A DNA stretch of 64,000 nt from the sequence record OR234014.1; one strand, written 5' to 3'. Shown piece after piece: positions 33,610 through 52,846 of the stretch; the stretch's first letter is position 1; each line of letters begins with the position of its first letter. Source of the DNA: Staphylococcus phage SAC. The notes beneath the pieces are model-generated. The model saw nothing but the letters and a program-made list of their open reading frames with translations, had not been told where the DNA came from and did no database searches. The position numbers and the translations under genes were made by a program.

Positions 33610-33638
33610 TTGACTTTTAATAATAAGTTATATAATAT
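33610..33638 (+). promoter_or_regulatory. Promoter TTGACT-17-TAATAT (copy 1 of a duplicated 45-bp promoter module)
   Basis: aatgttgacttttaataataagttatataatattactcact repeated at 33871-33915. Confidence 0.5.
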
Positions 33639-33874: not shown

Positions 33875-33903
33875 TTGACTTTTAATAATAAGTTATATAA
33901 TAT
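33875..33903 (+). promoter_or_regulatory. Promoter TTGACT-17-TAATAT (copy 2)
   Basis: Identical 45-bp module; followed by a GC-rich 150-nt segment and a terminator. Confidence 0.5.
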
Positions 33904-33909
33904 TACTCA

Positions 33910-34062
33910 CTAATTAGGTTCCTTAGGTAGCCCCATAGCCCTGTCAGACCCACCCACTTTAGTGGCATTTTACCCCTGCCCCCGTATAATATATTTATAT
34001 TAACCTATTGTATACAATCCTAATAAATAATAAAAAAAAAGAAAGGGAGTTTATTCCCTTTC
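33910..34062 (+). ncRNA. Candidate ~150-nt small RNA (GC-rich) between promoter copy 2 and the convergent terminator
   Basis: ttccttaggtagccccatagccctgtcagacccacccactttagtggcattttacccctgccccc is far more GC-rich than its surroundings; no ORF; bounded by a promoter and a hairpin terminator. Confidence 0.35.
34028..34062. terminator. Bidirectional rho-independent terminator at the convergence of the plus and minus gene blocks
   Basis: A9-gaaaggga-gtttatt-ccctttc-aatttg hairpin with A-run 5' and a T-rich tract 3'. Confidence 0.65.
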
Positions 34063-34070
34063 AATTTGTT

Positions 34071-34415
34071 TTACATCATTTCTATAGCTTCTGATTTAAT
34101 TTGTTCATAGTCTTTAATGTGTTTATTAAACTCTTCAACACGCATATGTTCCAATATATAATCTGCTAACTCAAACACTTTATTATCAACTAGTCTTATT
34201 GTTGTATCGTCTGTAAAGTCTAGGTTAGACGGTATATATTCTAATGGTGTTATGTCTTTATTCTCTTTTAATTGGTTTACAATATGAATGTATTTGCATA
34301 GTAAATCGTGTTCAACAACATCTACCTCTATTGTTTCATAGATAGCTGTTAATAATAAGTCAAATTCAATTCCTTCAAGTTCTGCTGTTTGTTCCATTTG
34401 GTTAAGTAATTTCAT
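34071..34415 (-). CDS. Acidic early protein (114 aa), paralogue of 34758-35108
   Basis: Shared ...E..D.L.KY.H...QL....T..E..PSN.D... pattern with the 116-aa neighbour. Confidence 0.55.
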   Translation of the reverse strand: MKLLNQMEQTAELEGIEFDLLLTAIYETIEVDVVEHDLLCKYIHIVNQLKENKDITPLEYIPSNLDFTDDTTIRLVDNKVFELADYILEHMRVEEFNKHIKDYEQIKSEAIEMM

Positions 34416-34519
34416 AGTTTATCAATCCCTTTTCTTTTATTTGTATTTCCTTAATTACATTATATCAAATATACAGTTAATTGCAATAGTTTTAGTTAAT
34501 TATTTTGGGAAGTTTTACA

Positions 34520-34780
34520 CTAATGATTATTCAGTAATTCTTTTATTACGTCTGGTGCTAGTGTTGTTATGTCATAGTCTTGTCTTAACTCATCTAAACT
34601 ATTGTACTGTTTAATCGTTCCGCTGTCTTTGTCACTGCCTTTAATTGTTTGTTTGCTTACTGTTTCGTTAATAGCTTCATCAATATCAGTGAAGCTATTA
34701 ACGTTGTCCATTATATCTATAAGTTCTTTATCAGATAAGTTCATGTGTAATGTCTCCTTAGAATAGCATTTGTTCTGCAT
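34520..34780 (-). CDS. Hypothetical early protein (86 aa)
   Basis: ORF in operon orientation. Confidence 0.5.
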   Translation of the reverse strand: MQNKCYSKETLHMNLSDKELIDIMDNVNSFTDIDEAINETVSKQTIKGSDKDSGTIKQYNSLDELRQDYDITTLAPDVIKELLNNH

Positions 34781-35108
34781 TAAATTCTAGTGTTTCAATA
34801 TCCATAATCATTTGTTCAAATTGTTCTTTGTTCATGTGGTTTAAGATAACGTTAGTAAAGTGTTCTGCTTTGTCTTGTGCTAATATAGCTCCCTCGTAAG
34901 TGCTATAATCAATGTTAGATGGTTTACGTTCTGCTTGTGTTAATGCTTCCTTGTTTAATAACTGTTGTTCTAAGTGGTTGTATTTATCTAATGCATCATA
35001 TTCAACAAGCTCTGTCATAACCGCTTCCTCAATTGCTAAAACTAATAATCTTTCAAGTTTAGTGTTTCCGTTTGCCATTTCTTTTACTGTGTTTTTCATT
35101 ATAATCAA
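34758..35108 (-). CDS. Acidic early protein (116 aa), paralogue of 34071-34415
   Basis: See the paralogue; promoter about 45 nt upstream. Confidence 0.55.
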   Translation of the reverse strand: MIIMKNTVKEMANGNTKLERLLVLAIEEAVMTELVEYDALDKYNHLEQQLLNKEALTQAERKPSNIDYSTYEGAILAQDKAEHFTNVILNHMNKEQFEQMIMDIETLEFNAEQMLF

Positions 35109-35152
35109 TTCCTTTTCTGTTTGTTTTTTATTTGTTGTGTTCCTTACATCTA

Positions 35153-35215
35153 TTATATTACACTATCTTAGGTGTAGTGTCAACACTTTTTTAAAACTTT
35201 TTTAAGTTTTTTTTA
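35153..35215 (-). promoter_or_regulatory. Early promoter module (minus strand): A/T UP element, TTGACA, 17 nt, TAATAT. One of at least 6 near-identical copies (also about 35595-35675, 36030-36070, 36540-36580, 36990-37050, 37380-37430)
   Basis: RC reads aaaaaagtgTTGACActacacctaagatagtgTAATATAATagatgtaagg; a conserved ~70-bp block including the SD-proximal sequence. Confidence 0.6.
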
Positions 35216-35292
35216 GTGTTCTCTATAGTTACAATAGCATCCGTCTTTTGTGTTGAACGGTATTTCTTACCTTTGTATTTAAACTTAATCAT
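35191..35292 (-). CDS. Mini-ORF (33 aa) MIKFKYKGKKYRSTQKTDAIVTIENTKKNLKKF, paralogue of 36157-36303
   Basis: Hand translation; a near-identical DNA segment is duplicated 1 kb away. Confidence 0.4.
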   Translation of the reverse strand: MIKFKYKGKKYRSTQKTDAIVTIENTKKNLKKF

Positions 35293-35307
35293 GTTAATAA
35301 TCCCCTT

Positions 35308-35583
35308 TTATTTTGTTTGTACATTGCAATATAGTTTATATTCCAAGTAATCTTCTTTTTTGATGTATTCATTGAAATCCCCTATAACATTTGTTAGGTT
35401 TATCCATGAGTTTGTTGCCTTACTAAAACCTCTTAGTGTTATTAATCCAGTAGGCAATTTGAATTGTTCTCTTTTTAATCCTAATTCTTTTCCTATGCTG
35501 TCTTTGATGTATTTAACATCTTTTTTAATTTCTGTTATTGTTGTTTTTGGTTTAGTTTCTATTTTAATATTCATGTGTATCAA
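35308..35583 (-). CDS. Hypothetical early protein (91 aa)
   Basis: ORF plus promoter module upstream. Confidence 0.5.
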   Translation of the reverse strand: MIHMNIKIETKPKTTITEIKKDVKYIKDSIGKELGLKREQFKLPTGLITLRGFSKATNSWINLTNVIGDFNEYIKKEDYLEYKLYCNVQTK

Positions 35584-35700
35584 TCCTTTTCTGTTTGTTT
35601 ACTACATCTATTATATTACACTATCTTAATGATAGTGTCAACACTTTTTTAAAACTTTTTTAAGTTTTTTTATTTGTTTGCTGTTCTTTGTTGTGTTCCT

Positions 35701-35991
35701 TTATAGTCTTCCTGCATTAATAAATAACTCTAACTGTTTGTTTAACTCATCCATAATAAAGCTATCAAGTTCATGAGCAGTAATATTATATTTCTTGTTT
35801 CCTGATGTCATTGAAACTACATTGTACACGTTATCGAATTTGTTAAAGTAAATACCATATTGTAACAAACCCCAATCATTAACATAAATATCAGTAACAT
35901 CTAAGTTATTATGTTTGCTTGAAGCTTCGTTCTGTGTTCTAATAACTGTATAATCTTGGTTTAATTCTTCTAAAGTTTTATAGTTTTTCAT
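35701..35991 (-). CDS. Hypothetical early protein (96 aa)
   Basis: ORF in operon orientation. Confidence 0.5.
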   Translation of the reverse strand: MKNYKTLEELNQDYTVIRTQNEASSKHNNLDVTDIYVNDWGLLQYGIYFNKFDNVYNVVSMTSGNKKYNITAHELDSFIMDELNKQLELFINAGRL

Positions 35992-36156
35992 AAGTAATCA
36001 ATCCCTCTTCTTTTTTTGTTTGTTGTGTTCCTTACTACAATTAATATATTACAGTATAAGCTCGTATTTGTAAAGTATTATATCAAAGAAATAAGGGAAG
36101 TTTTACACTAATGTGAAGCGGTTATATAGGCATAAAAAAATAAGGGTGGTTAGCCC

Positions 36157-36303
36157 TTATCTAATAAATATATTAATATTCTCTTGTAATCTAATAAACC
36201 AGTCTATCAATGTGATTACTGCTGTACCACCTAGAATAGTTACAATAGCATCTGTATTTTGTGTTGAGCGGTATTTCTTGCCTTTATATTTAACTTTAAT
36301 CAT
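36157..36303 (-). CDS. Mini-ORF (48 aa) MIKVKYKGKKYRSTQNTDAIVTILGG... with C-terminal TM, paralogue of 35191-35292
   Basis: Hand translation; preferred over the antisense track ORF 36113-36334. Confidence 0.4.
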   Translation of the reverse strand: MIKVKYKGKKYRSTQNTDAIVTILGGTAVITLIDWFIRLQENINIFIR

Positions 36304-36355
36304 TGTGTATCAATCCCTTATTTTTATTTTTTAAGCCTATGTAATAGGCTTTTGG

Positions 36356-36502
36356 CTATGACCAATTTATATCTTGTCTTTCTTTCTCTAGTTTTACCAG
36401 TTGTCTACGTAAAAAACGTGCTAACTCTCTGCTATTCCTACCATATATTAAGGCTTGCTGTACCTCGTCAATTTCTCTTAAAACTATTCTTATATCTCTC
36501 AT
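36356..36502 (-). CDS. Mini-ORF (48 aa) MRDIRIVLREIDEVQQALIYGRNSRELARFLRRQLVKLEKERQDINWS
   Basis: Hand translation; SD AAGGCGGG. Confidence 0.4.
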   Translation of the reverse strand: MRDIRIVLREIDEVQQALIYGRNSRELARFLRRQLVKLEKERQDINWS

Positions 36503-36583
36503 TTTAATACCCGCCTTTTTTGATTTGTTTTTGTATTACATCTATTATATTACAGTATCTTAAATGTAATGTCAAACATTATT

Positions 36584-36817
36584 TTAACCTTTTTTAACAA
36601 GTTTTGTTTTTCCATTTTCAAGTGTTAGTTTCACGCATTTGTCTGTTGTTGTAATTTCTTTTACATTGCTATTGTAAAGAGCATGACAAGCTTTATTAAT
36701 ATGATAGTATAAATCATCACATTCTTCCATATCTGACCACAGTCTATAATCATTTGATATAGAACCTTGTGCTTTAATTCTGTTATAAGTTCCTTTAATG
36801 TAATATAAATATTTCAT
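36584..36817 (-). CDS. Hypothetical early protein (77 aa)
   Basis: ORF in operon orientation. Confidence 0.5.
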   Translation of the reverse strand: MKYLYYIKGTYNRIKAQGSISNDYRLWSDMEECDDLYYHINKACHALYNSNVKEITTTDKCVKLTLENGKTKLVKKG

Positions 36818-36819
36818 AT

Positions 36820-36975
36820 TATTTAACCTCCGTATAGTGTATTACAAGGCTATAACCTTGCTTTGTTGGTTCGTGGTATGCTCGTGTGATAATTACGTTG
36901 TTTTCTCTCTCGAATTGTTCCATTTCATAGCCGTAGTTCTTATATGGTTTACTGTTAGTAATTAGTGTTTTCATA
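36820..36975 (-). CDS. Mini-ORF (51 aa) MKTLITNSKPYKNYGYEMEQFERENNVIITRAYHEPTKQGYSLVIHYTEVK
   Basis: Hand translation; its stop is 2 nt before the next gene's ATG. Confidence 0.4.
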
Positions 36976-37046
36976 ATTAATCAATTCCTTTTCTGTTTGT
37001 TTACTACATCTATTATATTACACTATCTTAATGATAGTGTCAACTA

Positions 37047-37361
37047 TTATTTTAACTTTTTTTCTTTAATAATTTCTGCATTCTCATTCACTAGGTATAA
37101 CGTATTATCTAGCTCTATAAATAAGTGTTTGTTCACTACCTTAACATTAATGTTAATTGGTAATCTATTTGAATGTGATACGCTAAAGACTTTCGTTTCT
37201 TTAAATAGTTCTAATGTTTCATAACTACCATCAATGTAAGCTAAATATTTAACTTGATAATGTGTTGAGTATTTTAAGTCATTTCTATAGTAGTTATTGC
37301 TTTTGTAACCGTCCATGTCTAAAAGTTCTATTAGTATATCTCCAATTTGATTTACGTTCAT
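37047..37361 (-). CDS. Hypothetical early protein (104 aa)
   Basis: ORF plus promoter module upstream. Confidence 0.5.
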   Translation of the reverse strand: MNVNQIGDILIELLDMDGYKSNNYYRNDLKYSTHYQVKYLAYIDGSYETLELFKETKVFSVSHSNRLPININVKVVNKHLFIELDNTLYLVNENAEIIKEKKLK

Positions 37362-37914
37362 ATCTTATCAATTCCTTTCGGTTTGTTTACTACGCTTATT
37401 ATATTACAGTATCTTGTATTTAATGTCAATAGGTTATACGAAAGTTTTTCAAAAGAAATGATTTCTTACTATTATATAGAAGAAACTAGAAATTACAGCT
37501 TAAATTAATTATTATAATCAATCGATTTAATTGTATACAATGCAGTGTAAAAATAACCATTTAATTTGATTAAAGGTATTGCATTTATATGTCAGTCTAT
37601 TAAAAGAAATAATGATATAGAAACAATAAAAAAGTTAGAAAAAGAATTACAAGAATTATATAAAAGAATTATATAAAAGAGTTATAGATTAGGCTATTAA
37701 CCTAATCTTTTTTTATGTTGTTTGAAGCGGTTAATATAAAGGGAAAACAGCGCCTGCTACTTAGGAAAATCATAGATTTATACTTATGATGTTTATAACA
37801 GTAAGAGAGCATTAAGCTTATAGGTCTATATTCAACGGTAATACTTTTTAGGTAGTATTTATCCTATAATATTTACTTGCTTATATAAGGTAGTTAAATA
37901 GGCAATACAAGCAT

Positions 37915-37945
37915 ATGAAAAAGCTAGAGTAAAGCAACCCTAGCT
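37915..37945 (-). terminator. Rho-independent terminator (minus strand)
   Basis: RC agctagggttgctttactctagct followed by TTTTT. Confidence 0.5.
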
Positions 37946-38351
37946 ACTTAATTTGATTCAAAATATCCTTAACAGCTTCTAATGTTAAATCTGATAACTT
38001 AATATTCTTATCACTATTAGTATCAATAATTACAGTATAGTTATCTACATCATACTGTATAACTTTAAGTACTGAATAAGTAACTAACTCGTATTCTGTA
38101 TGTGTGTGATATTCTATCATTGCGTACCCTATACCTAATTCAGTTAAGATAGGTTCTAATGTTTTTCTTCTCTCCATAAAATCTTTAATAGTATATTGCA
38201 TACCGTCTTTACTTAAAAATGCAGGCTCGTCATTGTAAATATAAAATAAATTCTCAATAAGTTCTAGTAAATCTTCTTCTGTTCCCTCACAAAGACTTAC
38301 TGTATAAAGTAATTCATCGTATAATTTATCCTTTGCTTCTTGAATATTCAT
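37944..38351 (-). CDS. Hypothetical early protein (135 aa)
   Basis: ORF in operon orientation. Confidence 0.55.
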   Translation of the reverse strand: MNIQEAKDKLYDELLYTVSLCEGTEEDLLELIENLFYIYNDEPAFLSKDGMQYTIKDFMERRKTLEPILTELGIGYAMIEYHTHTEYELVTYSVLKVIQYDVDNYTVIIDTNSDKNIKLSDLTLEAVKDILNQIK

Positions 38352-38971
38352 TGATATTCCTCCTTTATCCTATCCTAAGTGTATCATAAGTTTTAGGTAA
38401 TGTAAAGTATTTTATTTTAACCAGTATCTAACTTATCCGCTTCATTAATCCAACCTTAATTTAATCCCTGATACTTATCTTTTATCATACATACCTGTAA
38501 TAATTACTTGTCTGCAGAAAAGGTCTAAAGCTTTCATATTCAATATATTGTAGTAACAAAACATACTTAGCAACTTGTAACATAACTGTAATATTATTAT
38601 AATGCTGTTGTAACTAAATTCTCATCTAATTCTCATAAACATATGTTATAATCTAAACAACAATTAATTAGTTGTTAGTATTTTAATACGAATAACTTAT
38701 TACAGGCGTTACCTTGTTGTAGCGTAGCGTAAAACAACAAGGTATACGCTGTTTTGTTCTTATCTTTTTAAAAAGATAAGTCGTACGGTTAGTACGAAAT
38801 ACAAATATATAAATAAGTAATAACAAATATTTATACATAACTAACAGATAAATATACAAATTATTAGATTAACTATGTTGAAACGGGCATACTATGCTCA
38901 AATTGATATACAATTATTAGCCAAGATTAAATACAACATAATTACTCAGAATATAAATATAATATAAAAAA

Positions 38972-39000
38972 GAAGCGGTTTAATACCGCTTCTACTTCTT
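38972..39000 (-). terminator. Rho-independent terminator (minus strand; bidirectional-capable)
   Basis: A6-gaagcgg-tttaata-ccgcttc; on the minus strand the hairpin is followed by TTTTTT. Confidence 0.65.
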
Positions 39001-39160
39001 CAATATGATATTATAAATACTGTTTATCTTCTTTAACTAACCTTAATAAAGCATACTCATTCTCAATGACACTATAACCCTATAAGATATCTTGTAATAT
39101 TAATCTAGTCCCTACAGGTGTTAGTGTACATACTGATGTTCATTAAAGTCAGCCTCTCTA

Positions 39161-39442
39161 TTATTTACCAAATCTTTCTTTAGCAATCTTTTTCATTTGC
39201 TCTTTGCGCTCATTACTTACCGGTTTTCTTAATGTAATTAAATCCTCATCTAATACAACTTTAACCAATACTGGTGTTTCATTTTCTAATTGTTCTAATA
39301 CTTCCACCTTATCAGGGTACTTTTTCATAATATCAGTAATATAAGGTTTTCTACTTGCATAAATAATCCATTGCCCTTGATTATAATTCATACTTACTTC
39401 TTGTTCTTCAAAACTATATCCTCTACTTACAACTTTAGTCAT
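39161..39442 (-). CDS. Hypothetical early protein (93 aa)
   Basis: ORF in operon orientation. Confidence 0.5.
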   Translation of the reverse strand: MTKVVSRGYSFEEQEVSMNYNQGQWIIYASRKPYITDIMKKYPDKVEVLEQLENETPVLVKVVLDEDLITLRKPVSNERKEQMKKIAKERFGK

Positions 39443-39568
39443 TCTAATACCCTCCTTTATATTTAAGACCCTTAAGCTAGGGACGTTATAGTTCTATATT
39501 AAACGATAATCATTTTCTAGTAGTATTTATCCTATAAAATAACTTAATCTTTAAGAGCCTAATAACCT

Positions 39569-39877
39569 TTATAATAAATTAGTGATTAACCTAACTGTTT
39601 CTAAGGTAATAGGGTTGCTTTTACTGTCTACATAAGACAGTTCACTATCGAAACCAGAACCACTTAAATAGATTTGATTACGTTCCACATTAAATACAAT
39701 TAATTTAGTAGGGTCTACTTTACTAAACACTACTACATATTCCTTGCCATTGGCTAAAGGAAGAATAGCTCCGCCTGTTATTTTTTGAATTTTTTTGATT
39801 ACAACAGAATCGTCTTCCATCATAGTTTCTTCTTTGTTCATACCTTCTTGTACTATTTTTCTTTTTATTGTTTTCAT
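39569..39877 (-). CDS. Hypothetical early protein (102 aa)
   Basis: ORF. Confidence 0.5.
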   Translation of the reverse strand: MKTIKRKIVQEGMNKEETMMEDDSVVIKKIQKITGGAILPLANGKEYVVVFSKVDPTKLIVFNVERNQIYLSGSGFDSELSYVDSKSNPITLETVRLITNLL

Positions 39878-39879
39878 TG

Positions 39880-40089
39880 TTATTTCCCCTTATCCATAAA
39901 TACAGTAACTATAATGTTTTGTAAACACTTAATAATCTTATCTCTTTGAGTGTCAGATACTTCATACAAGTCTTCTGTATTATCTAAGAAGCGGTTAAAT
40001 TCATCTTGATTAGTAAAATCTACACCTTTATTAGTCTCATCTAAAAATTTCTCAATAACTCTTTCTGCTATTTTTTTATTACTACTCAT
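39880..40089 (-). CDS. Hypothetical early protein (69 aa)
   Basis: ORF. Confidence 0.5.
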   Translation of the reverse strand: MSSNKKIAERVIEKFLDETNKGVDFTNQDEFNRFLDNTEDLYEVSDTQRDKIIKCLQNIIVTVFMDKGK

Positions 40090-40103
40090 TATCTATTCTC
40101 CTT

Positions 40104-40406
40104 TTATTTTTTAGTAACTGTATAATACTCGTCATTAGTAAGTTTACTAATATCTATATCTTCTTCAGAAAAATATAGATTTTTATCATCTTTACTTAAT
40201 TGTTTTAATACACTATCAATGTATATAGGTAATACCTTCCCATCATTAAAAACCACATCAATACTATCTTTTAAGTATATATGATTCTCATCTATGATTG
40301 TATAAATATTATAATCTTCTAATACCTTACTCCCAATTAACGCTACTTTTCCGTTACTCATATTAAGAACTCCTTTTATATAATATTTGAAGTGGTTATA
40401 CTTCAT
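40104..40406 (-). CDS. Hypothetical early protein (100 aa)
   Basis: ORF. Confidence 0.5.
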   Translation of the reverse strand: MKYNHFKYYIKGVLNMSNGKVALIGSKVLEDYNIYTIIDENHIYLKDSIDVVFNDGKVLPIYIDSVLKQLSKDDKNLYFSEEDIDISKLTNDEYYTVTKK

Positions 40407-41133
40407 TCATAGGATATTCCAGATAATACTTAATTGTTTGTAAAGGTTTATGTACATTAGTGCCATAACCATAGGAATAAATTCCATAAGTATCAGAGTA
40501 AAATTTCTTTATATCAATTAACTCAACTTCTCTATATACTACAACATTATATGGAGATACTACAAACTCATAATCTCCTCCCATAAAAGTATTATATAGT
40601 ACTTGTTTTAACTCAAGACCACTAGTGACTATATCCTTATAGAAGAAGTTGAGATAGTTATCTACTGTATTAAGAAAGTCTTTTACACCTGTATACTCTT
40701 TATAAATATTAATCCAACCTAATTCTAATTCATAATATAGGTTACCCTCTTCATCAAAACTTAGTTTAAGTTTAACCGTATCAATATCTTTACGATGTAT
40801 ATTAAAAGATTGCTCTAAGAAACCTACATCCCAAATATGCTTAACTCCATTAAAATTCTTTAAACCTTTGATACTTAACTGAGCAATAGCTTTGGACATT
40901 AACTTTTCTTCTTTGGTATTTAACTTATGTCTTGATAAGTATTCATAACCATTAAAGTCATATACATATTGGTTATCATCTTTACCTACGCTAATTGACT
41001 TTAAATATTTTTTATTAGTTTCTACATAGTATAAAACACCACCAAGACCAAATAATCCTAAAAAACCACCAATATAATCAACAGAGTAACCTTGTTTCTT
41101 ATACTCTTTAATTTCTTTTCTCTTACTAAACAC
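40396..41133 (-). CDS. Hypothetical protein with N-terminal TM segment (245 aa)
   Basis: GGFLGLFGLGGVLYY hydrophobic segment. Confidence 0.55.
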   Translation of the reverse strand: MFSKRKEIKEYKKQGYSVDYIGGFLGLFGLGGVLYYVETNKKYLKSISVGKDDNQYVYDFNGYEYLSRHKLNTKEEKLMSKAIAQLSIKGLKNFNGVKHIWDVGFLEQSFNIHRKDIDTVKLKLSFDEEGNLYYELELGWINIYKEYTGVKDFLNTVDNYLNFFYKDIVTSGLELKQVLYNTFMGGDYEFVVSPYNVVVYREVELIDIKKFYSDTYGIYSYGYGTNVHKPLQTIKYYLEYPMNEV

Positions 41134-41152
41134 TATAGCACTCCCTTATACA

Positions 41153-41512
41153 TTATTCTACTTGCTCTTCCATAGATTGAATTGTATGTAGTACCATAGT
41201 AGCTAAATCTCTAATTATCTCAAGTTCATCACTATCTTCATATACATTAGTTAAAGTATCACAGAAAGAGCATGAACCGTAAAAATCACTAACAGTGATA
41301 TCTGGAACACCCTCTACCTTTGATTTAAATTTAGATATAATAGTACCTGAGTAACCATCACCATCATTAATAACAATAGGGTTTGTGTCATGTGTATCTT
41401 TCAACACTAACTCCCCTGCTAACTTGTGTAAGTCTTCATAGAAATAATGCTCATGTTCATCAATAAATTCCATAATATAATCTGTAGTTATACCTTTAGC
41501 TTGTTCTAACAT
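41153..41512 (-). CDS. Hypothetical acidic protein (119 aa)
   Basis: ORF. Confidence 0.5.
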   Translation of the reverse strand: MLEQAKGITTDYIMEFIDEHEHYFYEDLHKLAGELVLKDTHDTNPIVINDGDGYSGTIISKFKSKVEGVPDITVSDFYGSCSFCDTLTNVYEDSDELEIIRDLATMVLHTIQSMEEQVE

Positions 41513-41537
41513 TATATTTTCCTCCTTATTTTTACAA

Positions 41538-41939
41538 TTATTTTAAATTATCTATCGTACTCTTAATCAAATATCCTTCTGGATTAAAAATCTCTTGAAT
41601 AGCAATAGGCAAGCCTATTAATAGCACTAAAAAAGAAATAATAGACAGAGTAACAGCAAATATAATTACTGTGCATCCTGCAGCAGAAAGCTCTTTTTCA
41701 TTCTTATAAACAAACTCAAATAATAGGGTACTATGACCTTCATTAGACTTTTTATCTGACTTATACAAAGCCACCCATAAGATAGCTGTTATAGATAATA
41801 ATATACTTATTGAACATAAATCTATAATACCTTGAGTAACTGTGTATTTAATTAAGGATTCATAACCATGTGTACCTGCTTGCTCTAACTTACCACCTAA
41901 ACTATCTAAACGTTCTAATACTTCTTTATTCATATCCAT
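41538..41939 (-). CDS. Membrane protein, 2 TM (133 aa)
   Basis: IDLCSISILLSITAILWVALY and CTVIIFAVTLSIISFLVLLIGLPIAI helices. Confidence 0.55.
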   Translation of the reverse strand: MDMNKEVLERLDSLGGKLEQAGTHGYESLIKYTVTQGIIDLCSISILLSITAILWVALYKSDKKSNEGHSTLLFEFVYKNEKELSAAGCTVIIFAVTLSIISFLVLLIGLPIAIQEIFNPEGYLIKSTIDNLK

Positions 41940-42089
41940 ATTATATTCACTCCTTTAATCTTTATATACTAAGTATAAACCTTAACACACATAAAATCAA
42001 CACATTTATGTAAGAGATATAAAAAAATACCTATAGTTATAATAGCTATAGGTATAAATTTTCATATAGAAGCGGTTATATATAATACT

Positions 42090-42398
42090 CTACTTACCTA
42101 GGAACGTACGAATTTCCTTTAGACGCTCTTTTTCTTTTCTGCACTTTTCATCTAAAGATTCCTCATAGTAATCAATAAGACTATAGATACTACTGAATCC
42201 TTTAGGTAGTAATGTGTCACTGTTAATAACCTCTTTTACTACTCTACCATTTTTGATAAACTTCATGTTATTATAATGTTTATCATCATTAACTTTAATA
42301 CAGTAACCTTCACCTAAGTCATAAGTATACCAATCCCCACTACCAAAGTTACAATGACCTAATATATACTCAAATAATTCACTTACCATAATATCCAT
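42090..42398 (-). CDS. Hypothetical early protein (102 aa)
   Basis: ORF. Confidence 0.5.
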   Translation of the reverse strand: MDIMVSELFEYILGHCNFGSGDWYTYDLGEGYCIKVNDDKHYNNMKFIKNGRVVKEVINSDTLLPKGFSSIYSLIDYYEESLDEKCRKEKERLKEIRTFLGK

Positions 42399-42745
42399 TA
42401 TTCTAACCTCCCATACTCATACATAACTTTATTTTCATATTCTGTATATAAATACCCTAGTAATATATAGATATTAGTATACAAACCTTCTAGCTCCTCT
42501 AAGTCTTTAATTGTTCCCACCTCAAGCGTATCACTCAAAGGAAATACTATATTATCCGCTTCCTCAAACCTAGCAATGATATGGTTGTCTTTATATACAA
42601 GAATATAAATAAGGCTATTACCTACTCTACACCTTACTTTATAACCCCTACCTAAGTACACCTCATAATCTGTAATATTCTCCATTATGCCAGTAACTTC
42701 TCCATACTTCCTACAAAACTTAGCTAATTTTGACATAGTAACCAA
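42398..42745 (-). CDS. Hypothetical early protein (115 aa)
   Basis: ORF; ATGA overlap with the downstream gene. Confidence 0.5.
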   Translation of the reverse strand: MVTMSKLAKFCRKYGEVTGIMENITDYEVYLGRGYKVRCRVGNSLIYILVYKDNHIIARFEEADNIVFPLSDTLEVGTIKDLEELEGLYTNIYILLGYLYTEYENKVMYEYGRLE

Positions 42746-42870
42746 CTCCTTTTTTACCTTTTAAACTTTTCTTCTAGGGAAAACCTATCTAATTTTACCT
42801 AAATGTCAACCATAGAATGCGGGTTCAAGCCCTATTTTTACCTTTGACTACTTTTTCCTAGAGAAAAACT

Positions 42871-43209
42871 TTAGTTATACTGTTCTACTTGTTCTCCAAA
42901 TATATTATACATATATTTTTGATAAGCACTATCTTTTAAATACTTATCATACTCATCTACTAGTATCTTATACATATTACTAACTACATCTTTCAATAAG
43001 GAAACATACACCTTACCTGTACCTTGTACTACTACTTCATACTCACTCATATCATCATATACCATAATAGCACAACCAAAATAAGTATCTTCCAGAAAGA
43101 ACCTATAAATATACTTATCATCACTTGTTCTTATACAATTTGTATACTTAAACTCACCTATACCTGATTTATTATGTAACACTCTATCTAGTATATCTAA
43201 TTCTTCCAT
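42871..43209 (-). CDS. Hypothetical early protein (112 aa)
   Basis: ORF. Confidence 0.5.
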   Translation of the reverse strand: MEELDILDRVLHNKSGIGEFKYTNCIRTSDDKYIYRFFLEDTYFGCAIMVYDDMSEYEVVVQGTGKVYVSLLKDVVSNMYKILVDEYDKYLKDSAYQKYMYNIFGEQVEQYN

Positions 43210-43222
43210 AATAAGCCCCTTT

Positions 43223-43366
43223 CTATTGTGTTAATAAAACACCTACTCCATATATAAACATAATCAATATAAGTATAGTTAAAAACACTGCTAACTTAAA
43301 TCTATTACTATTACCTTCTTTACTATATACTCTATAACATATATCTATATCTATAACTAAATACAT
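43223..43366 (-). CDS. Small membrane mini-ORF (~47 aa)
   Basis: Hand translation MYLVIDIDICYRVYSKEGNSNRFKLAVFLTILILIMFIYGVGVLLTQ; coordinates approximate. Confidence 0.3.
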   Translation of the reverse strand: MYLVIDIDICYRVYSKEGNSNRFKLAVFLTILILIMFIYGVGVLLTQ

Positions 43367-43414
43367 TAATGATAAACTTACTACAAAGTAACCTATACTA
43401 ATACCCTCTTTCTA

Positions 43415-43615
43415 TTACATACCTAACATATGTAGTATTATAGAAGCAAAAACTAAAACAGTTAAAACAAAAGAAACAATAAGATATATACTAAAAAACA
43501 CTTCTTTCTGCTTAATAGATTTAACTATATCAGTAATTAAAGCACTAAGCATACCAACTATAATACTAATACCTAAAATACTAACCGCAATATACATTAA
43601 AGTTGAACTTATCAT
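43415..43615 (-). CDS. Small membrane protein (66 aa)
   Basis: Two hydrophobic helices. Confidence 0.5.
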   Translation of the reverse strand: MISSTLMYIAVSILGISIIVGMLSALITDIVKSIKQKEVFFSIYLIVSFVLTVLVFASIILHMLGM

Positions 43616-43855
43616 CTACAACTCTCCTATATAATAAAGTACTCTACTTACTATGTAACCTAAACTCAAAACAATAGAAATAGTACCAATACAAATACTC
43701 ATAAATAATAAACCAAACACACAAGCTGATTCTAAATCACTAACACTATCATAATTATCAAGTACATGCTTATAATACTTCTTACCAAACCTTATACTTA
43801 GTACAATACCAATAGTAGCTAAAAATATAGCAACGATACTTATAAATATACTCAT
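43616..43855 (-). CDS. Small membrane protein (79 aa)
   Basis: Hydrophobic helices; adjacent to three other TM mini-proteins. Confidence 0.5.
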   Translation of the reverse strand: MSIFISIVAIFLATIGIVLSIRFGKKYYKHVLDNYDSVSDLESACVFGLLFMSICIGTISIVLSLGYIVSRVLYYIGEL

Positions 43856-43920
43856 AAACTAATCCCCCTTTTTATTGAAGCGGTTTTTATTTCCATTACT
43901 TACCTTACAAAAACCGCTTC

Positions 43921-44106
43921 CTAAATACCAAATAAAGCTAATATACTTGATACCAGTACAACCGTCATAACTGTAAATGATACGATATTAGTCCACTTAT
44001 CAAACCTATCATACTTAATTGACTGAACCATTTCTACTAGAATAAAGGTATACATAAACAAAACCATTACAGCTACTATTGTAAGTAACATTGTTAGTCC
44101 TATCAT
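43921..44106 (-). CDS. Small membrane protein (61 aa)
   Basis: Two TM helices. Confidence 0.5.
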   Translation of the reverse strand: MIGLTMLLTIVAVMVLFMYTFILVEMVQSIKYDRFDKWTNIVSFTVMTVVLVSSILALFGI

Positions 44107-44108
44107 AT

Positions 44109-44303
44109 CTATCTCTCCTTCCTATCAGACATATGATGTAATACAGAGAGTATAAAAGCAAGTACAAAAGCAAGTACAAAAGGAATTAAACATGTAATAG
44201 GAATTACCTCTTCCCCTATGATTAAATTCCCTACCCACATACCTAAAATTACTCCTGCTAAACAAAATATATAACGTAAAATAAACTCCAATGCTTTACT
44301 CAA
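44109..44303 (-). CDS. Small membrane protein (64 aa)
   Basis: Two TM helices. Confidence 0.5.
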   Translation of the reverse strand: MSKALEFILRYIFCLAGVILGMWVGNLIIGEEVIPITCLIPFVLAFVLAFILSVLHHMSDRKER

Positions 44304-44350
44304 CTTACTTCCTCCTTTATAATTATTCTCAAGTATAACTTAACAAAATA

Positions 44351-44560
44351 CTACTTTAATAACCTTTGTTTAAAGAATCTTACTACGTCTTCACCATAAC
44401 ATACAGATAAAAATACATTATCCCCTGTAACCCTAAAACCACTATCTATACATCTATTTTCGATGTAGTAGTCATTAACTTTTAATGTACTCATGTCCCC
44501 TAAAACTTCTATTTTATATCCTAACTGATTTAAATGTACATAAATATCTGATAAACTCAT
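44351..44560 (-). CDS. Hypothetical early protein (69 aa)
   Basis: SD GAGGAG. Confidence 0.5.
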   Translation of the reverse strand: MSLSDIYVHLNQLGYKIEVLGDMSTLKVNDYYIENRCIDSGFRVTGDNVFLSVCYGEDVVRFFKQRLLK

Positions 44561-44685
44561 AATACAACTCCTCGTTACTAAGTCTTTATTGAAGCGGTTA
44601 TTTAACCCCTCTATATACTAGTACTACACATAATAATACAAGTGCTGTACATATGTAAGTATACTGAATATTACTATATACCAAA

Positions 44686-45087
44686 TCACAATACGTTACC
44701 ATCTTTCCATATAGTAACTAACTCATTATCTACAACAGTACTAACAGACAATAACCATGTATTTTTACCTTCGACATAGTAGTCAATAACTTCATTAATA
44801 CTACTTCTATACCATACTGAGTTTAATACACTGTTACCTTGCTTATAAGTAACTACTATACTACTTAACTCAGTAGAAGCATCTATAACCGCTTCTACAA
44901 TAAACTTAGTGTCATTAGGTATAGTAATAGATTTATTAGGATACAATGCATTATAAAACGATATATCATCAACAGTTATAACAACAATAAACTGACTATC
45001 AGTAGAATAGTGTCGACCTTTTTTTATATCACCTTTATAATACATATACATTAATTCTATAAACGAAACTTCTCTTTTAATCTTCAT
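44686..45087 (-). CDS. 'IWKDG'-family protein (133 aa), paralogue of 31280-31687 and 48320-48712
   Basis: MKIKREVSFIELM...C-terminal LVTIWKDGNVL. Confidence 0.55.
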   Translation of the reverse strand: MKIKREVSFIELMYMYYKGDIKKGRHYSTDSQFIVVITVDDISFYNALYPNKSITIPNDTKFIVEAVIDASTELSSIVVTYKQGNSVLNSVWYRSSINEVIDYYVEGKNTWLLSVSTVVDNELVTIWKDGNVL

Positions 45088-46119
45088 AATAAATCATCTC
45101 CTTTAACTTTATATACTTAGTATAAACCATAAGTAATATACTGTCAACACATATGTGTAAAATAGTTAAAATTTCTTTATTGTTCGGAAATTACTAAATA
45201 TATTAAACTTTTACTCTAGGGAAAATTAAGTCAATACTACCACAGAAACAAACTATATATATATATTAAATAAGCAATGTTCAGAATTATAGTATACCAT
45301 ATACACAATATCTGATACTAAATATACCTTTATACACAGTAAATACTACTTCAGCTTAGTTTAACTACACATTAGAATAGTTTAGCATATAATCAGCATA
45401 GTTTAATACTACATAAGCATAGTTCACAGTAGTTAAAACTATATAAAAATAAATAGTTAGATGTCTAATAGTTAGATACCTAACTATTTATACACTATGA
45501 AGGTGGGAAGCAAAGAAATTCCTAGGTAACTGTTCTTACTTGCTACTTGCTACTTAGTATATAGGTATACCATGTACCTGTTTTCTTTTAATTACTTACT
45601 AGCTATTACTTAGTATCTACTTATTTATCTATCTAGAAGATGTAAAGAAATTACTAGGTAACTGTTCTTACCTAACCTAAGTGATAGTGGTAGCTACTTT
45701 CTTTTAGCTACTTTCTTTTAGTTACTTACCTATTACTTAATATCTATTACTTACTATTAGAATATTTATTAATACTTAAGTTACTTAATAATTCTTTCTT
45801 CTTATTATTCATATCTTCAAACTGTTATACAGTATTTATTTACTTATTTATTTACTTATCTATTTAGCTATTACTTATACACTACCTACTACCTACTGCT
45901 TATCTATGTGCTATCAATTATTGTTTTTTTATCTATTATTTATTTCCTTGATATATAGGTACTTATAATATCAGTTGTTTCTTTATGTGTTACTTATCTG
46001 ATTTCTTTATCTACTTATATATATTGCTTTCTTTTACCTATTACTTACTTATATAACTTCTACCTACATCAATCTCTATACCTATTTGTTTGTCTGTTTG
46101 GTTGTTTACTCTTCTACAC

Positions 46120-47154
46120 TTACCTATATACATGTCTATATCTTTTAATTACTTCTTTACTATCTATATTAGAGTATTTAAATGTTCTTTGTAGGTTACT
46201 TAATATATGTTTAAAGGTAGATTTTCTAGCATCAATCTCTATATATTGTATACTATTTTCTTTACAATATTCTCTCTTTTCTATGTCTGATAATTTTGTT
46301 TTCTGGTGGTTCATGTATCCACTGACTTCTTGGTAATGTTGAACACCGTGTACTTCTATAACGGTATTATACTTAGGTAAGAAAAAATCAAATCTTTTTT
46401 TACCTAATTCTTTAAATTTATATTCTCTAATATACTCTATGTTTGCAATATCTAAATAACTTTGTGTTAATCTTTCTCCGAAGCTAGAGTATTGTTTAGA
46501 GCATTGACAGCTATAGTTATCTTTAATTAAATCTGTAATTCTAATATCTTTTTTTCTTTTACAATTAGGACAAATCGTTTCTATCTTTTTCTTAGTTGTA
46601 TACTTATATTTAAATAAGTCTTTATATTTAACATACTTATGAATATGTTTCTTATGGTATAACATCTTAGATTGAGGAATAGTACCATATGGTATATAGT
46701 TATCAGTTTTATATTTTAGTAAATTTTGTTTACTTACTTTACCATAGACTTCTTCCTTTATGTTATATACATAAAGTTGTGTACCTAAATGAGTGTCTAC
46801 TACTTTTAGTACTTCGCAATTTTTAATAATATCTCCTTGTTTTATATTATGAACAGTATAAGACTTCTGACCTTGGGTAATAAAGTTGAATTTAACCTTA
46901 TAGACATTAGCTACTTGGGTAGCTTGGGTTTTATTGTTGTAAGTTATTTCTACTCTAGATTCTTTTTTAGTTGGTGTAAGGTATTTAATATAGAGCTTAC
47001 CTTTCGTGCTATGATACTCAAAGGGTATATAATGGTTTACATTTACCCAATCAATACGAGACTTCTTTTTAGGTAAGGAAGATAAGTCTATATAGCTTAT
47101 AACACCTTGTTTTGTTTTTGAATAATATATGTCTTGTTCTTTCCAGTACTCCAT
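46120..47154 (-). CDS. Free-standing homing-endonuclease-like protein (344 aa) with zinc-ribbon and a Vsr/DUF559-like nuclease domain; paralogue of the intron A endonuclease
   Basis: CPNCKRKKD...C.C zinc ribbon; C-terminus RFDFFLPKYNTVIEVHGVQHYQ aligns with YDFYLPEYDTLIEYQGIQHYQ of the 3067-4032 ORF. Confidence 0.6.
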   Translation of the reverse strand: MEYWKEQDIYYSKTKQGVISYIDLSSLPKKKSRIDWVNVNHYIPFEYHSTKGKLYIKYLTPTKKESRVEITYNNKTQATQVANVYKVKFNFITQGQKSYTVHNIKQGDIIKNCEVLKVVDTHLGTQLYVYNIKEEVYGKVSKQNLLKYKTDNYIPYGTIPQSKMLYHKKHIHKYVKYKDLFKYKYTTKKKIETICPNCKRKKDIRITDLIKDNYSCQCSKQYSSFGERLTQSYLDIANIEYIREYKFKELGKKRFDFFLPKYNTVIEVHGVQHYQEVSGYMNHQKTKLSDIEKREYCKENSIQYIEIDARKSTFKHILSNLQRTFKYSNIDSKEVIKRYRHVYR

Positions 47155-47175
47155 AATAAGTGCTCCTCTTACTCT

Positions 47176-47448
47176 TTATTGAACCTGTTCTCCTGTATCT
47201 TGATTAAACACTTTAGCATTTGGGTTATGTGTTTCACCTTCTTGATACTCTGTACCCCATAATCTTTTACGTTCTTCACTAACGTCTTTATGCTCTCCGT
47301 TATTCTCAGGTACGTATGAAGTATGGTCATCTGCATCATTATTTTGAGATTCTTGGTTACTTTGTTCTACTTGCTCTTGGTTTTTCAACACATTGATTAT
47401 TGTTAGTACAATTAATACGGATAAAACTAAACTTAATATTTTTTTCAT
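47176..47448 (-). CDS. Secreted small protein with signal peptide (90 aa)
   Basis: MKKILSLVLSVLIVLTIINVL signal-like N-terminus, then a polar Q/E/N-rich mature part. Confidence 0.55.
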   Translation of the reverse strand: MKKILSLVLSVLIVLTIINVLKNQEQVEQSNQESQNNDADDHTSYVPENNGEHKDVSEERKRLWGTEYQEGETHNPNAKVFNQDTGEQVQ

Positions 47449-47588: not shown

Positions 47589-48320
47589 TTATAGCTGGTT
47601 TTTAAAGAACTGATAAGCTAGTACAATGTTGGTACGCTCTTTATTATCTCCTTCATTCATTTCTAATCCTTTTTTTAGAAATTCTTCTAAATTTCCTTCC
47701 CAACATCCTACAAATACTTTATTATATTTAGGTAGGTACGTTACTTTATTTTTAAAACTACCAATATTATCTATAGAATACATTTCTAAACCTCTAATAC
47801 CTTGAGTACTTGCCCAAGACAGCTCAGCACCTGTTAAATCAACATAGCTTAAGTTAACATCTAATAAATTAGCAGACCTTAAATCAGCGTTTGTTAAATT
47901 AATACCTGATAAGAAGGCACGCTTTAAGTCAGCCTCTATTAAAGTAGCATTTGTTAAATCACTATCTAATAAATCAACACCTGTTAAGTTAGCTTCTTCT
48001 AAAGAAGCATATCTTAAGCTAGAACTTAATATATCAGCATAGTTTAAATCCGCATATGCTAAGATAGCTTCTGTTAAATTAACTTCTATTAGTTTAGCAC
48101 AACTTAAATCAGCATGCCTTAAATCTGCTCCTGTTAAATCTACATAACTTAAATCAGCACCTATTAAGGTAGCTTCTCTTAAATCAACATCCTTTAAATC
48201 TAGGTCACGTAAGTCTGTAAAACTTAAATCTGCTCTTTTACCTTCTTCCTCATTGCTTTCTATCCATAATTTATGTTCTTCTAGAGCTTTATTTAATTCT
48301 TCTTTTGTTATTGTTTTCAT
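47589..48320 (-). CDS. Pentapeptide-repeat protein, copy 1 (243 aa)
   Basis: More than 20 consecutive A(D/N)L.. pentapeptides (ADLSYVDLTGADLRHADLSCAKLIEVNLTEA...). Confidence 0.75.
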   Translation of the reverse strand: MKTITKEELNKALEEHKLWIESNEEEGKRADLSFTDLRDLDLKDVDLREATLIGADLSYVDLTGADLRHADLSCAKLIEVNLTEAILAYADLNYADILSSSLRYASLEEANLTGVDLLDSDLTNATLIEADLKRAFLSGINLTNADLRSANLLDVNLSYVDLTGAELSWASTQGIRGLEMYSIDNIGSFKNKVTYLPKYNKVFVGCWEGNLEEFLKKGLEMNEGDNKERTNIVLAYQFFKNQL

Positions 48321-50702: not shown

Positions 50703-51408
50703 TTTCTTTCACTCCTTTAAAGAAATCGTAAGCTAATTTAATTTTCTTTGAGACTTCTTTTATTCTATCTTCTTCGTACTCAAGTGTAGGTTCTAGTTTA
50801 CCAAACTCTTCAAGGGTATATTCATTATAATTACTAATAATTCTATCATAATCAGGTAAATAAGTTACATGCTCGTCAAAATCAAGTACATTACTTATAG
50901 TATATATACTTATTCCAAATACGTCAAGAGTATTAGCATAATATAATGTTGTATTAGTTAGGTTTGTACCACCGAAATCTGCACCTTTTAAATTAGCCTT
51001 ACTTAAGTTAGCATTTTTCATATTAGCCCACCTAGCGTCTGCTTCACTTACATTAGCTTCAGCTAAGCAGGCATTTTCTAAGTTTGCTTTTACTAAATTA
51101 GCCCCCTCTAAGTTAGTATGATACAACTCAATATCATTCATTCTAGCATGTGTAAATCTCGTAGATATACACTCATTGTAACTTAAATCAGAATAACTTA
51201 AATCACAATAACTTAGGTTAGCATCACTTAAACTAGACATTACAATAGTTGAATATTGAAGGTCAGCGGAATGAAAGTCAAGATTTCTTAAATCTACACA
51301 CTGTAAAAAAAGCTTTTCTCCTTCCTTTTCATTTGTAGCTAGCCATTGTTCATGCTTTTCTATCAATAAATCTAATTCAGGTTGTGTTATCCTTTTTAAG
51401 TCTTGCAT
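50689..51408 (-). CDS. Pentapeptide-repeat protein, copy 2 (239 aa)
   Basis: ANLSYCDLSYSDLSYNE...ANLVKANLENACLAEANVSEADARWANMKNANLSKANLKGADF repeats. Confidence 0.7.
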   Translation of the reverse strand: MQDLKRITQPELDLLIEKHEQWLATNEKEGEKLFLQCVDLRNLDFHSADLQYSTIVMSSLSDANLSYCDLSYSDLSYNECISTRFTHARMNDIELYHTNLEGANLVKANLENACLAEANVSEADARWANMKNANLSKANLKGADFGGTNLTNTTLYYANTLDVFGISIYTISNVLDFDEHVTYLPDYDRIISNYNEYTLEEFGKLEPTLEYEEDRIKEVSKKIKLAYDFFKGVKEIDKI

Positions 51409-52189: not shown

Positions 52190-52846
52190 CTATTTACGTT
52201 TACTAAAAAAGCAGTAAGCATCTCTTATTTCCTCAAGTTTACTATTATTTCCTTCATTCATCTCTAATCCCTTTTCTAAAAACGCTTCTAAACTACCTAT
52301 CCAACACCCTGCGTATACTCTATCTAAGCTAGGAATATAAGTCACTTTACCATTAAAAGTTCCAATATTATCTATAGAGTATACTTTTAGTCCTTTGATA
52401 TTTTGAGTACTTGCTTGGGATAATTTAGCATCTGTTAAATTGGTATTTGTTAAGTCTGCATATTCTAAATTAGCCTCATTTAATCTGGAATCTGTTAAAT
52501 TAGCTTTTCTTAAATCAGCATAATATAAATCAGTTCCATATAAAACAGAACCTTCTAAGTTAGCATCATCTAAATCAACACAGCTTAAGTTAGCACGTGT
52601 TAAGTTAGCTCTTGTTAAATCCGCACCTTTTAAGATAGCACCTCTTAAATTAGTATCCTCTAAATCAGCATACCTTAAGACAGCACCTCTTAAATTAGCA
52701 CTCCTTAAGTCAGCATCTACTAAATTAGCATTTCTTAAGATAGTATAACTTAAATCTGCTTTAGCTCCTTCTTCACTATTACTATCTAACCATAATTTAT
52801 GCTCTTCTAAAACTTTATGTAGTTCTTCTTTTGTTATTGTTTTCAT
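52190..52846 (-). CDS. Pentapeptide-repeat protein, copy 3 (~218 aa from ATG 52846)
   Basis: MKTITKEELHKVLEEHKLWLDSN... is nearly identical to the copy-1 N-terminus; SD AGGAG 7 nt upstream; the track start 52984 is a GTG in an upstream extension. Confidence 0.7.
   Translation of the reverse strand: MKTITKEELHKVLEEHKLWLDSNSEEGAKADLSYTILRNANLVDADLRSANLRGAVLRYADLEDTNLRGAILKGADLTRANLTRANLSCVDLDDANLEGSVLYGTDLYYADLRKANLTDSRLNEANLEYADLTNTNLTDAKLSQASTQNIKGLKVYSIDNIGTFNGKVTYIPSLDRVYAGCWIGSLEAFLEKGLEMNEGNNSKLEEIRDAYCFFSKRK

Follow-up and report, generated by a model that had tools for sequence, protein, structure and literature searches.

The borders of the long terminal repeats (LTRs) of Twort-like phages are already known, and several records of the genus Silviavirus start at the site discussed here, which lies in a 1-kb gene-free tract of Staphylococcus phage SAC. 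The DNA analysed (record OR234014.1, 64,000 nucleotides, hereafter the window) is 94-98% identical at 44600-47300 to 47 Silviavirus Staphylococcus myoviruses (Romulus, Remus, Stau2, StAP1 and others), a genus of Romulus/Remus-like myoviruses in the Twortvirinae, Herelleviridae. Lambda cos (cosQ-cosN-cosB) and SPP1 pac each combine a cleavage site with several phased short protein-binding repeats within about 150 bp, and in SPP1 there are binding sites on both sides of the cut. The tract resembles both in having a defined cut flanked by phased short repeats, a likeness of layout in which protein binding is putative here; both differ from it in that they use cohesive ends or headful packaging, whereas the tract belongs to a long direct terminal repeat. 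In T7, as Chung and Hinkle reportedly found in 1990, packaging needs sequences on both sides of the terminal repeat, and they are said to have proposed a hairpin near the repeat as a processing intermediate.

We interpret the gene-free tract of phage SAC as very probably the inner junction of the LTR with unique DNA, and the same region as a candidate terminus-generating, pac/cos-like packaging signal, a role to which we give slightly better than even chances. The border assignment follows from a related record, LSA2308, whose two ends are exact duplicates over 10,492 bp; the first base of the repeat maps to window position 33925 and the last to 45522. The window therefore holds a single collapsed copy of the LTR, with its inner border in a conserved sequence that we call box 1. 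Since redundant DNA meets unique DNA in this box, an end of the virion DNA would lie there. The features that define the border are as follows (a caret marks the cut here and below).

33925-45522, no strand assigned: LTR, one collapsed copy of 11,598 bp, from the LSA2308 duplication mapped onto the window.
45512-45539, plus strand: boundary box 1, AAAGAAATTCC^TAGGTAACTGTTCTTAC, with the LTR/unique junction between 45522 and 45523.
33905-33940, plus strand: outer LTR boundary, ...AATTAGGTTCCTT^AGGTAGCCCC, from the LSA2308 mapping.

The LSA2308 repeat opens with AGGTAGCCCC (window 33925), its internal copy being preceded by ...GGTTCCTT, and closes with ...GAAATTCC / ...GAGAAATTCC (window 45522), from where the internal copy continues into TAGGTAACTG. 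The ends of five further records fall within 1 nt of window 45522/45523; among them MR003 and VL10 start there, while qdsa001 and DELF3 end there. The termini of VL10 were obtained by PhageTerm read-start analysis (PMC11035597). The junction box across the cut, AAAGAAATTCC^TAGGTAAC, is conserved, with redundant DNA to its left and unique DNA to its right, and the sequence TTCCT(T)AGGTA is common to both LTR borders in direct orientation. By the usual convention this border is position 1 of the genome, the left physical end. The same border is position 1 in the orientation of phage K, Staph1N, Twort, MR003 and VL10, with the LTR genes transcribed away from it. The window itself reads like a concatemer junction.

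The LTR side of the cut carries short elements that are arranged at regular distances from the terminus:

45353-45424, plus strand: four GCATAGTT(T)A-like units in a 21-bp register, 99-169 bp inside the terminus.
45449-45491, minus strand: palindrome of AATAGTTAG units, forming a hairpin followed by a U-run, 31-73 bp inside the LTR.

An earlier reading made from the sequence only had described at least five iteron copies spaced 11-16 bp apart. This count does not hold: there are four units, starting at 45354, 45375, 45396 and 45417, which are exactly 21 bp apart (two helical turns) with 13-bp spacers, and Tandem Repeats Finder likewise reports a period of 21 with 3.4 copies. With all motif-density, composition and skew baselines computed within the 64-kb window, the GCATAGTT octamer shows no window-wide enrichment (56 matches, 65 expected), but ATAGTT reaches its highest density in the window at the repeats (7 copies per 150 bp, the mean being about 0.25). 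For the comparison within the genus we used 10 Silviavirus relatives. The phased units are near-invariant among them, and the complete LTR-side module (45320-45522) is present in all 10 with 91-99% identity.

The layout around the cut is common to Silviavirus, Kayvirus and Twortvirus. The border in phage K (NC_005880.2) and Staph1N (JX080300.2) reads GGTAAAAGAATTCC^CAGGTACTTAG; the Kayvirus box AAAAGAATTCC^CAGGTACTTAG is homologous to box 1, with the cut before CAGGTAC, and the Lobocka-lab annotation of the Staph1N R-LTR places it at GAATTCC^CAGGTAC. Maine, with ends determined by PhageTerm, terminates in ...AAAAGTTTTCC, i.e. ...TTTTCC, and the upstream AAAGAA(A)TTCC is common to the window, phage K, Staph1N and Maine. 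Twort (MT151386.1, LTRs annotated) ends in ...GTCGAAAAAGTTCT^, and its box AAAAAGTTCT^GGGGTT is again homologous to box 1. The last 200 bp or so of the LTR can be aligned between Kayvirus and Silviavirus, the best-kept blocks being the CATAG(A/T)TTAA units and the AATTCC box. Units at -147, -126 and -105 from the cut are found in phage K and the window alike; the CATAGATTAA units of phage K/Staph1N and of Twort, spaced by 21 bp, are homologous to those of the window, with two TAGATWA units 21 bp apart in Twort, at -153 and -132 from the cut. In the Sepunavirus Quidividi, which starts with TAGGACTTTTTTG, one GCATAGTTTAA unit lies about 190 nt into the genome.

The three genera also share a duplication of the box or half-box on the unique side of the cut. 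In Twort the 16-mer box recurs without change 336 bp further outward, and in phage K the unique-side half-box is repeated three times at 35-bp spacing. The Kayvirus arrangement differs in other respects, as the phage K array (3 x 35 bp) is purine-rich on the compared strand and only 100-200 bp separate the border from the next gene. The window has the following elements at the corresponding place.

45644-45671, plus strand: boundary box 2, with 27 of 28 bases the same as box 1.
45540-45553, plus strand: heptamer array (TTGCTAC)2, of variable copy number, just outside the cut.

That a sequence beginning near 45511 recurs near 45641 had been noted before, and both copies are real: the 28-mer AAAGAAATTMCTAGGTAACTGTTCTTAC occurs at 45512-45539 and 45644-45671 with a single base difference between the copies, and no match is expected by chance. 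The difference (TTCC to TTAC, position -2 from the cut) is found in box 2 of every relative inspected.

Variation among the 10 relatives is greatest directly outside the cut, in a segment that contains a head-to-tail array of TTACTAC/TTGCTAC/TTGATAC heptamers. The window and DELF3 have two units, HM01, SAP_01 and KSAP7 five, Stau2 seven, EW15 10, and both Romulus and Remus 25; their laboratory-bred derivative PM93 (PMC8065394) has 24. StAP1 and LSA2308 have (TTTTACC)n instead, with additional AAAGAAATTCC boxes and roughly 450 bp of other sequence. A comparable position is occupied in T7, where, as we checked in the T7 sequence, a CCTAAAG heptamer array starts directly outside the 160-bp terminal repeat. 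This flanking short-repeat array (SRL) spans positions 175-340 and has no fewer than 10 copies of the heptamer, placed every 12-13 bp, whereas the heptamers of the window follow one another head-to-tail; the repeats differ in size (160 bp versus 11.6 kb), and motif, phage family and host are unrelated. In practical terms, the hypervariable heptamer locus may mislead genome assembly and might be used to tell strains apart.

Beyond box 2 the unique region ends in a third type of sequence:

45672-46119, plus strand: pyrimidine-rich noncoding tract at the end of the unique region, T 49%, G 8.5%, dense in TACTTA.

The proposal that this part is built from TTACTTA-type units is correct, as TACTTA, counted 17 times over 591 nt, reaches 28.8 per kb compared with 1.2 per kb in the rest of the window, a 23-fold enrichment on one strand only. 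The further description as a degenerate heptamer array holds locally, for the exact heptamers at 45540-45553 and 45881-45897, but not tract-wide, where a lag of 4 (z 6.7) is stronger than a lag of 7 (z 2.9). The strand was also said to be almost devoid of G, which is overstated: G amounts to 8.1% at 45550-46120, compared with 13.5% window-wide and 4-6% in coding DNA at 42.9-43.6 kb, and G-depletion is ordinary for this leftward-transcribed region. Similarly, the purine fraction of 0.31-0.35 is among the lowest of the window, as the reported purine/pyrimidine skew implies, but is matched near 300, 35,400 and 53,000. At 45620-46119 the 10 relatives are 85-97% identical, including those that lack the neighbouring endonuclease gene. 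A 30-nt profile hinted that the tract is better conserved than its neighbours; the per-relative table shows about the same conservation for both, and we dropped this claim. Twort has a corresponding 519-bp noncoding tract on the unique side (T 55%, G 7.7%, the same strand bias and TTACCTA/TTACTTA motifs), so that a T-rich noncoding stretch of about 520 bp stands at the same position outside the border. A search further afield gave no such tract at the border of the Listeria phage A511. The (TAGGA)n "dead zone" of the Listeria phage CKA15 was likewise considered as an LTR-border analogue and rejected: A511 has only 60 bp from the last gene to the R-LTR, with no resemblance.

The location of a packaging region in this tract, one of two roles suggested by the sequence-only reading, is therefore supported to the extent that the tract holds the redundant/unique junction and that the flanking repeat architecture is conserved across Twortvirinae genera; the role itself stays a candidate. 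If it is correct, the terminase or an accessory DNA-binding protein would recognise the boxes on either side of the cut together with the phased repeats. The terminase would then cleave the replicative concatemer at box 1 and create the virion end, in the manner of cosB/cosN of lambda or pacL-pacC-pacR of SPP1, with box 2 as a non-cleaved accessory site and the heptamer array as a slippage-prone spacer whose length would not be critical. We consider this conserved tract probably packaging-related and not the replication origin, and regard the border assignment and the packaging role, taken together, as reasonably probable. The phased repeats, box 2, the heptamer array and the tract shared by Twort and Silviavirus were not described in the literature searched, which did not include the Lobocka 2012 chapter.

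Several observations weigh against this interpretation. The terminus has been placed in the window by homology alone. The Nanopore-based deposits of Romulus (MW546077) and Remus (MW546076) end the LTR elsewhere and are mutually discordant, Romulus 57 nt earlier and inside the palindrome, Remus in coding DNA. The spacing between the phased repeats and the cut is not absolute, because the palindrome is 15 bp shorter in Stau2 and MR003. The box of Stau2 reads CCCATGTACC, not CCTAGGTAAC. Within the genus the pyrimidine-rich tract is no better conserved than the neighbouring genes, and the case for constraint on this 450-bp part therefore comes from the parallel in Twort alone. Finally, the Kayvirus genomes are bracketed by 12-bp inverted repeats, TAAGTACCTGGG / CCCAGGTACTTA, according to the part of PMC7596081 that cites Lobocka 2012, and a Kayvirus-style inverted 12-mer was looked for at the other LTR border of the window and not found. 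The outer border GGTTCCTT^AGGTAGCC has a direct and not an inverted resemblance to the box, in keeping with the direct TTCCT(T)AGGTA by which Silviavirus differs from Kayvirus. The inner border, by contrast, does have a motif homologous to the Kayvirus CCCAGGTACTTA box: CCTAGGTAACTG, with 8 of 12 positions in agreement, which is CCCAGGTAACTG in DELF3, HM01 and SAP_01.

The Romulus terminus of MW546077 (about window 45465) was considered as an alternative boundary. We rejected it on the grounds that Remus is discordant, that the assembly derives from a rapid-kit library and that six records agree on 45522. Both MW546077 and MW546076 were assembled from a Nanopore rapid-kit library (PMC8065394). 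The LTR ends deposited for Romulus and Remus are probably imprecise and in need of correction. The LTR length in the genus extends from about 5.3 kb (as deposited) to 11.6 kb, and a 4.85-kb block of LTR genes (window 39465-44311) is absent from Romulus.

The region appears to carry transcription punctuation in addition to the proposed packaging elements. The palindrome described above has arms of 20 nt (45449-45468 and 45472-45491) that are 90% complementary around a 3-nt loop, with an exact core AAATAGTTAG/CTAACTATTT; the inverted repeat of 11 bp reported from the sequence is thus real, but it is longer than stated and its quoted right arm was one base off. On the minus strand the RNA folds with -20 kcal/mol (z -3.9) and is followed by the U-run AUUUAUUUUUAU, and JX846613 annotates a terminator at this place, so that the palindrome is likely to be an intrinsic (rho-independent) terminator of the minus strand. 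A simple terminator scan missed the hairpin because its stem has fewer than three G-C pairs. The outer 10 bp of the stem do not change among the relatives, whereas the inner 15-bp unit is variable or is lacking in Stau2 and MR003. Two further features lie deeper in the LTR:

45119-45147, minus strand: sigma-70-type promoter TTGACA-17-TATACT, positioned to drive the 133-aa LTR gene away from the terminus.
44686-45087, minus strand: 133-aa LTR gene nearest the terminus, called "intron-encoded nuclease" in relatives.

The promoter is the best match of the region in a consensus scan (11/12), is annotated at the same site in JX846613 and lies in a segment that is 98-100% conserved in the 10 relatives. 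The 133-aa open reading frame (ORF) matches PHROG 467, of unknown function, and has no Pfam match. All ORFs at 34-45 kb are on the minus strand, and relatives annotate TreN and TreB, i.e. tre-type LTR genes, among them. Early expression of LTR genes has been shown only for phage K (PMC11598898; PMC9241854). In KSAP7 and the CIFT phages (CIFT_MFB_MRSA28) an extra homing-endonuclease gene of 624 nt is located at about 45170-45290, between the LTR promoter and the 21-bp repeats; the A+T-rich spacer therefore tolerates insertions. The hairpin with its U-run would stop leftward read-through from the last unique-region operon into the LTR and the promoter would start the LTR gene nearest the terminus, the two forming an insulator between that operon and the LTR.

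These elements could also be all that the region contains, i.e. a terminator, an LTR-gene promoter and 3' untranslated or noncoding RNA, with the repeats as neutral products of slippage whose place at the LTR border is coincidental. The strong promoter and the hairpin with U-run are as such an explanation expects, and the purine-rich minus strand is the transcribed strand of the neighbours. The same explanation is consistent with a heptamer copy number that drifts freely between 2 and 25, with a within-genus identity no higher than that of the flanking genes and with the transcription of all loci of phage K except its proposed origin (PMC9241854). It leaves unexplained, however, why the cut lies inside a box conserved in three genera, why this box is duplicated on the unique side in each genus, and why the 21-bp phasing is kept where the flanking DNA no longer aligns. 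The strand composition speaks against a structured RNA, and Rfam gave no match in the tract, either for the whole window at gathering thresholds or for 45000-46300 at E <=1, the latter search including intron-like signals; ARAGORN detected no tRNA or tmRNA in the window. We therefore regard punctuation without a packaging function as rather unlikely.

The absence of genes from the tract is confirmed. No ORF longer than 40 codons had been seen at about 45100-46120, and we find none of 30 aa or more on either strand at 45088-46040. Such a tract with direct repeats invites a reading as replication origin, the other role that had been suggested: the phased repeats would be initiator iterons, the A+T-rich flank at 45088-45352 the unwinding element and the strand-biased tract a replication switch. 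Four direct repeats in an exact 21-bp phase fit this, exceeding the three in helical phase that an iteron-type origin calls for, as do the presence of a palindrome and a single DnaA-like box, TTATACACA, at 45330. The segment 45088-45352 is low in GC (22.6%), but eight other 450-nt windows have equal or lower GC, and the tract is not the GC minimum. The DnaA-like box has one mismatch, however, and all others have two, so that there is no DnaA-box array, and no initiator gene adjoins the tract, its neighbours being an endonuclease-like ORF and small unknown ORFs (including the PHROG 467 member).

The skew data point in the same direction. GC skew is positive at 7-34 kb, negative on both sides and negative throughout 38-64 kb, and it tracks gene orientation; the cumulative skew has its extremes at about 7 and 34 kb, where transcription flips, and shows no inflection at 45-46 kb. 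The sequence-only reading had named as refuting it a skew minimum and replication initiation elsewhere, together with a tract not conserved in position; the skew extremes do lie elsewhere, but the position is conserved among relatives. The repeats moreover keep to the terminus from genus to genus. For phage K an untranscribed 450-bp region of lowest GC between gp190 and gp191 has been proposed as origin (PMC9241854), far from the LTR junction, and its positional counterpart in the window is at about 7.2-8.8 kb, next to the terminase gene. A replication origin at the tract is accordingly unlikely, and the full scheme of iterons, unwinding element and switch we hold to be very unlikely, which removes the tract as an origin candidate. 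Next to the terminase side of the genome, the divergent-transcription switch at 7225-7367 and a 278-bp A+T-rich intergenic gap with TA-rich repeats at 8566-8843 (GC 22% at 8526-8975) together occupy the position that corresponds to the proposed phage K origin.

A function in DNA entry has to be considered as well, since T5 offers a described precedent. The injection stop signal of T5 lies in an extensive untranslated part of its LTR that is rich in direct and inverted repeats and in palindromes (bioRxiv 10.1101/866236), and which resembles the window in that an untranslated repeat- and palindrome-bearing stretch lies at the inner part of a terminal repeat of about 10 kb with pre-early host-takeover genes. 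By analogy, the terminal repeats and the palindrome of the window could bind a host or virion protein that protects the end or pauses injection. In favour of this, the LTR encodes the earliest host-takeover genes in relatives (PMC11598898; PMC9241854), and the repeats are within 170 bp of the physical end. T5 differs, however, in its hallmark of eight ordered DnaA boxes, in place of which the window has the single one-mismatch box, and most of the tract (45523-46119) is outside the LTR. No report of two-step transfer in Twort-like phages was found in the literature searched. An entry function is thus quite improbable, although not to the degree of an origin.

The tract is bordered on its outer side by a larger gene:

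46120-47154, minus strand: HNH/homing-endonuclease-like ORF of 344 aa, with PHROG matches.

Its recognition as endonuclease-like from the sequence was sound, as the ORF matches a PHROG homing endonuclease (3.5e-86) and a PHROG HNH endonuclease (2.3e-24); Pfam searches of four flanking ORFs returned nothing informative, and nothing for this ORF. The gene is split in Romulus and not found at the same position in HM01, SAP_01 and DELF3. Endonuclease-like ORFs flank the tract on both sides, KSAP7 and the CIFT phages carry the further gene mentioned above, and a 16-mer of box 1 recurs in inverted orientation in a group I intron of the terminase gene. From these facts one might take the tract for the debris or landing pad of mobile endonucleases, a decayed intron or homing-endonuclease flank with no function of its own. 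Against this, phages without the neighbouring endonuclease gene also have the tract in conserved form, the architecture is the same in Twort, and the tract has no intron-like Rfam signal. Such an origin of the tract is the least probable of the explanations discussed here, with hardly any likelihood, and the 344-aa endonuclease-like ORF is a mobile passenger outside the junction module.

The intron in question interrupts the large-terminase gene (terL), where a gap at 4033-4269 matches the group I intron family RF00028 (30 bits, E 7e-6, below gathering). The exact inverted 16-nt copy of box 1 (AAATTCCTAGGTAACT, 4088-4103, minus strand) is the only inverted copy of the box; it lies in this intron, 53 nt upstream of an endonuclease ORF (BLAST E 5e-4 within the window), and is absent from the Quidividi intron. 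Downstream of the terL gap, a 321-aa ORF (3067-4032, minus strand) aligns with the VSR homing endonuclease of the Quidividi terL intron. The 2-kb terL stretch is 100% identical to SSP49 and about 90% to Sepunaviruses of S. epidermidis, but only 38% of it is covered in Stau2, a pattern that suggests intron/exon mosaicism.

The outer LTR border has structures of its own. A G+C-rich element at the LTR start (33925-33995, ...GACCCACCC...AGTGGCATTTTACCCCTGCCCCCGTATAATAT) corresponds nearly base for base to phage K, amid DNA of 28% GC. Four plus-strand TTGAC(T/A) promoter-like sites (33579-33915) are located within 350 bp of this border and point into the LTR, antisense to the LTR genes; an exact 39-bp duplication (33609 and 33874) carrying TTGACT-17-TATAAT belongs to this cluster, and a similar TTGACT cluster is found at the equivalent border of phage K.

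Repeats elsewhere in the window are of a different kind. At its start, positions 1-127 hold 7.1 perfect tandem copies of an 18-bp unit, and a 15-bp repeat comes next at 145-218; the minus strand is an open frame that encodes (PIEPEK)7 and a proline-rich stretch, probably the repeat linker of a protein that runs off the window. Periodic repeats of 15 and 30 nt at 48103-48200, 51179-51215 and 52508-52755 are situated in ORFs whose counterparts in relatives carry the annotation pentapeptide-repeat protein.

How phages with multi-kilobase direct repeats (SPO1-, K- and T5-like) recognise their borders and regenerate the repeat in packaging is the question to which the present locus speaks, as it offers conserved and compact candidates for the cis-elements involved. 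The candidate elements around the cut are concrete targets for terminase-binding and mutagenesis work. Furthermore, the sequence rule ...AAAGAAATTCC^YAGGTA... places position 1 in Silviavirus genomes, which is of practical interest because staphylococcal myoviruses are leading agents of phage therapy, and the ends given in their genome records are often arbitrary or wrong. A more far-reaching idea, which we put forward tentatively and think fairly unlikely, is that the phased repeats, the cleaved box, box 2 and the TACTTA tract would together be the packaging signal of the long-terminal-repeat Herelleviridae, with the heptamer array as a footprint of the repeat-duplicating reaction at concatemer junctions. 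If this were true, the footprint would arise by slippage or template switching in repair synthesis, and the heptamer copy number, which ranges from 2 to 25 and went from 25 to 24 in laboratory breeding, would report naturally on the LTR-duplicating reaction.

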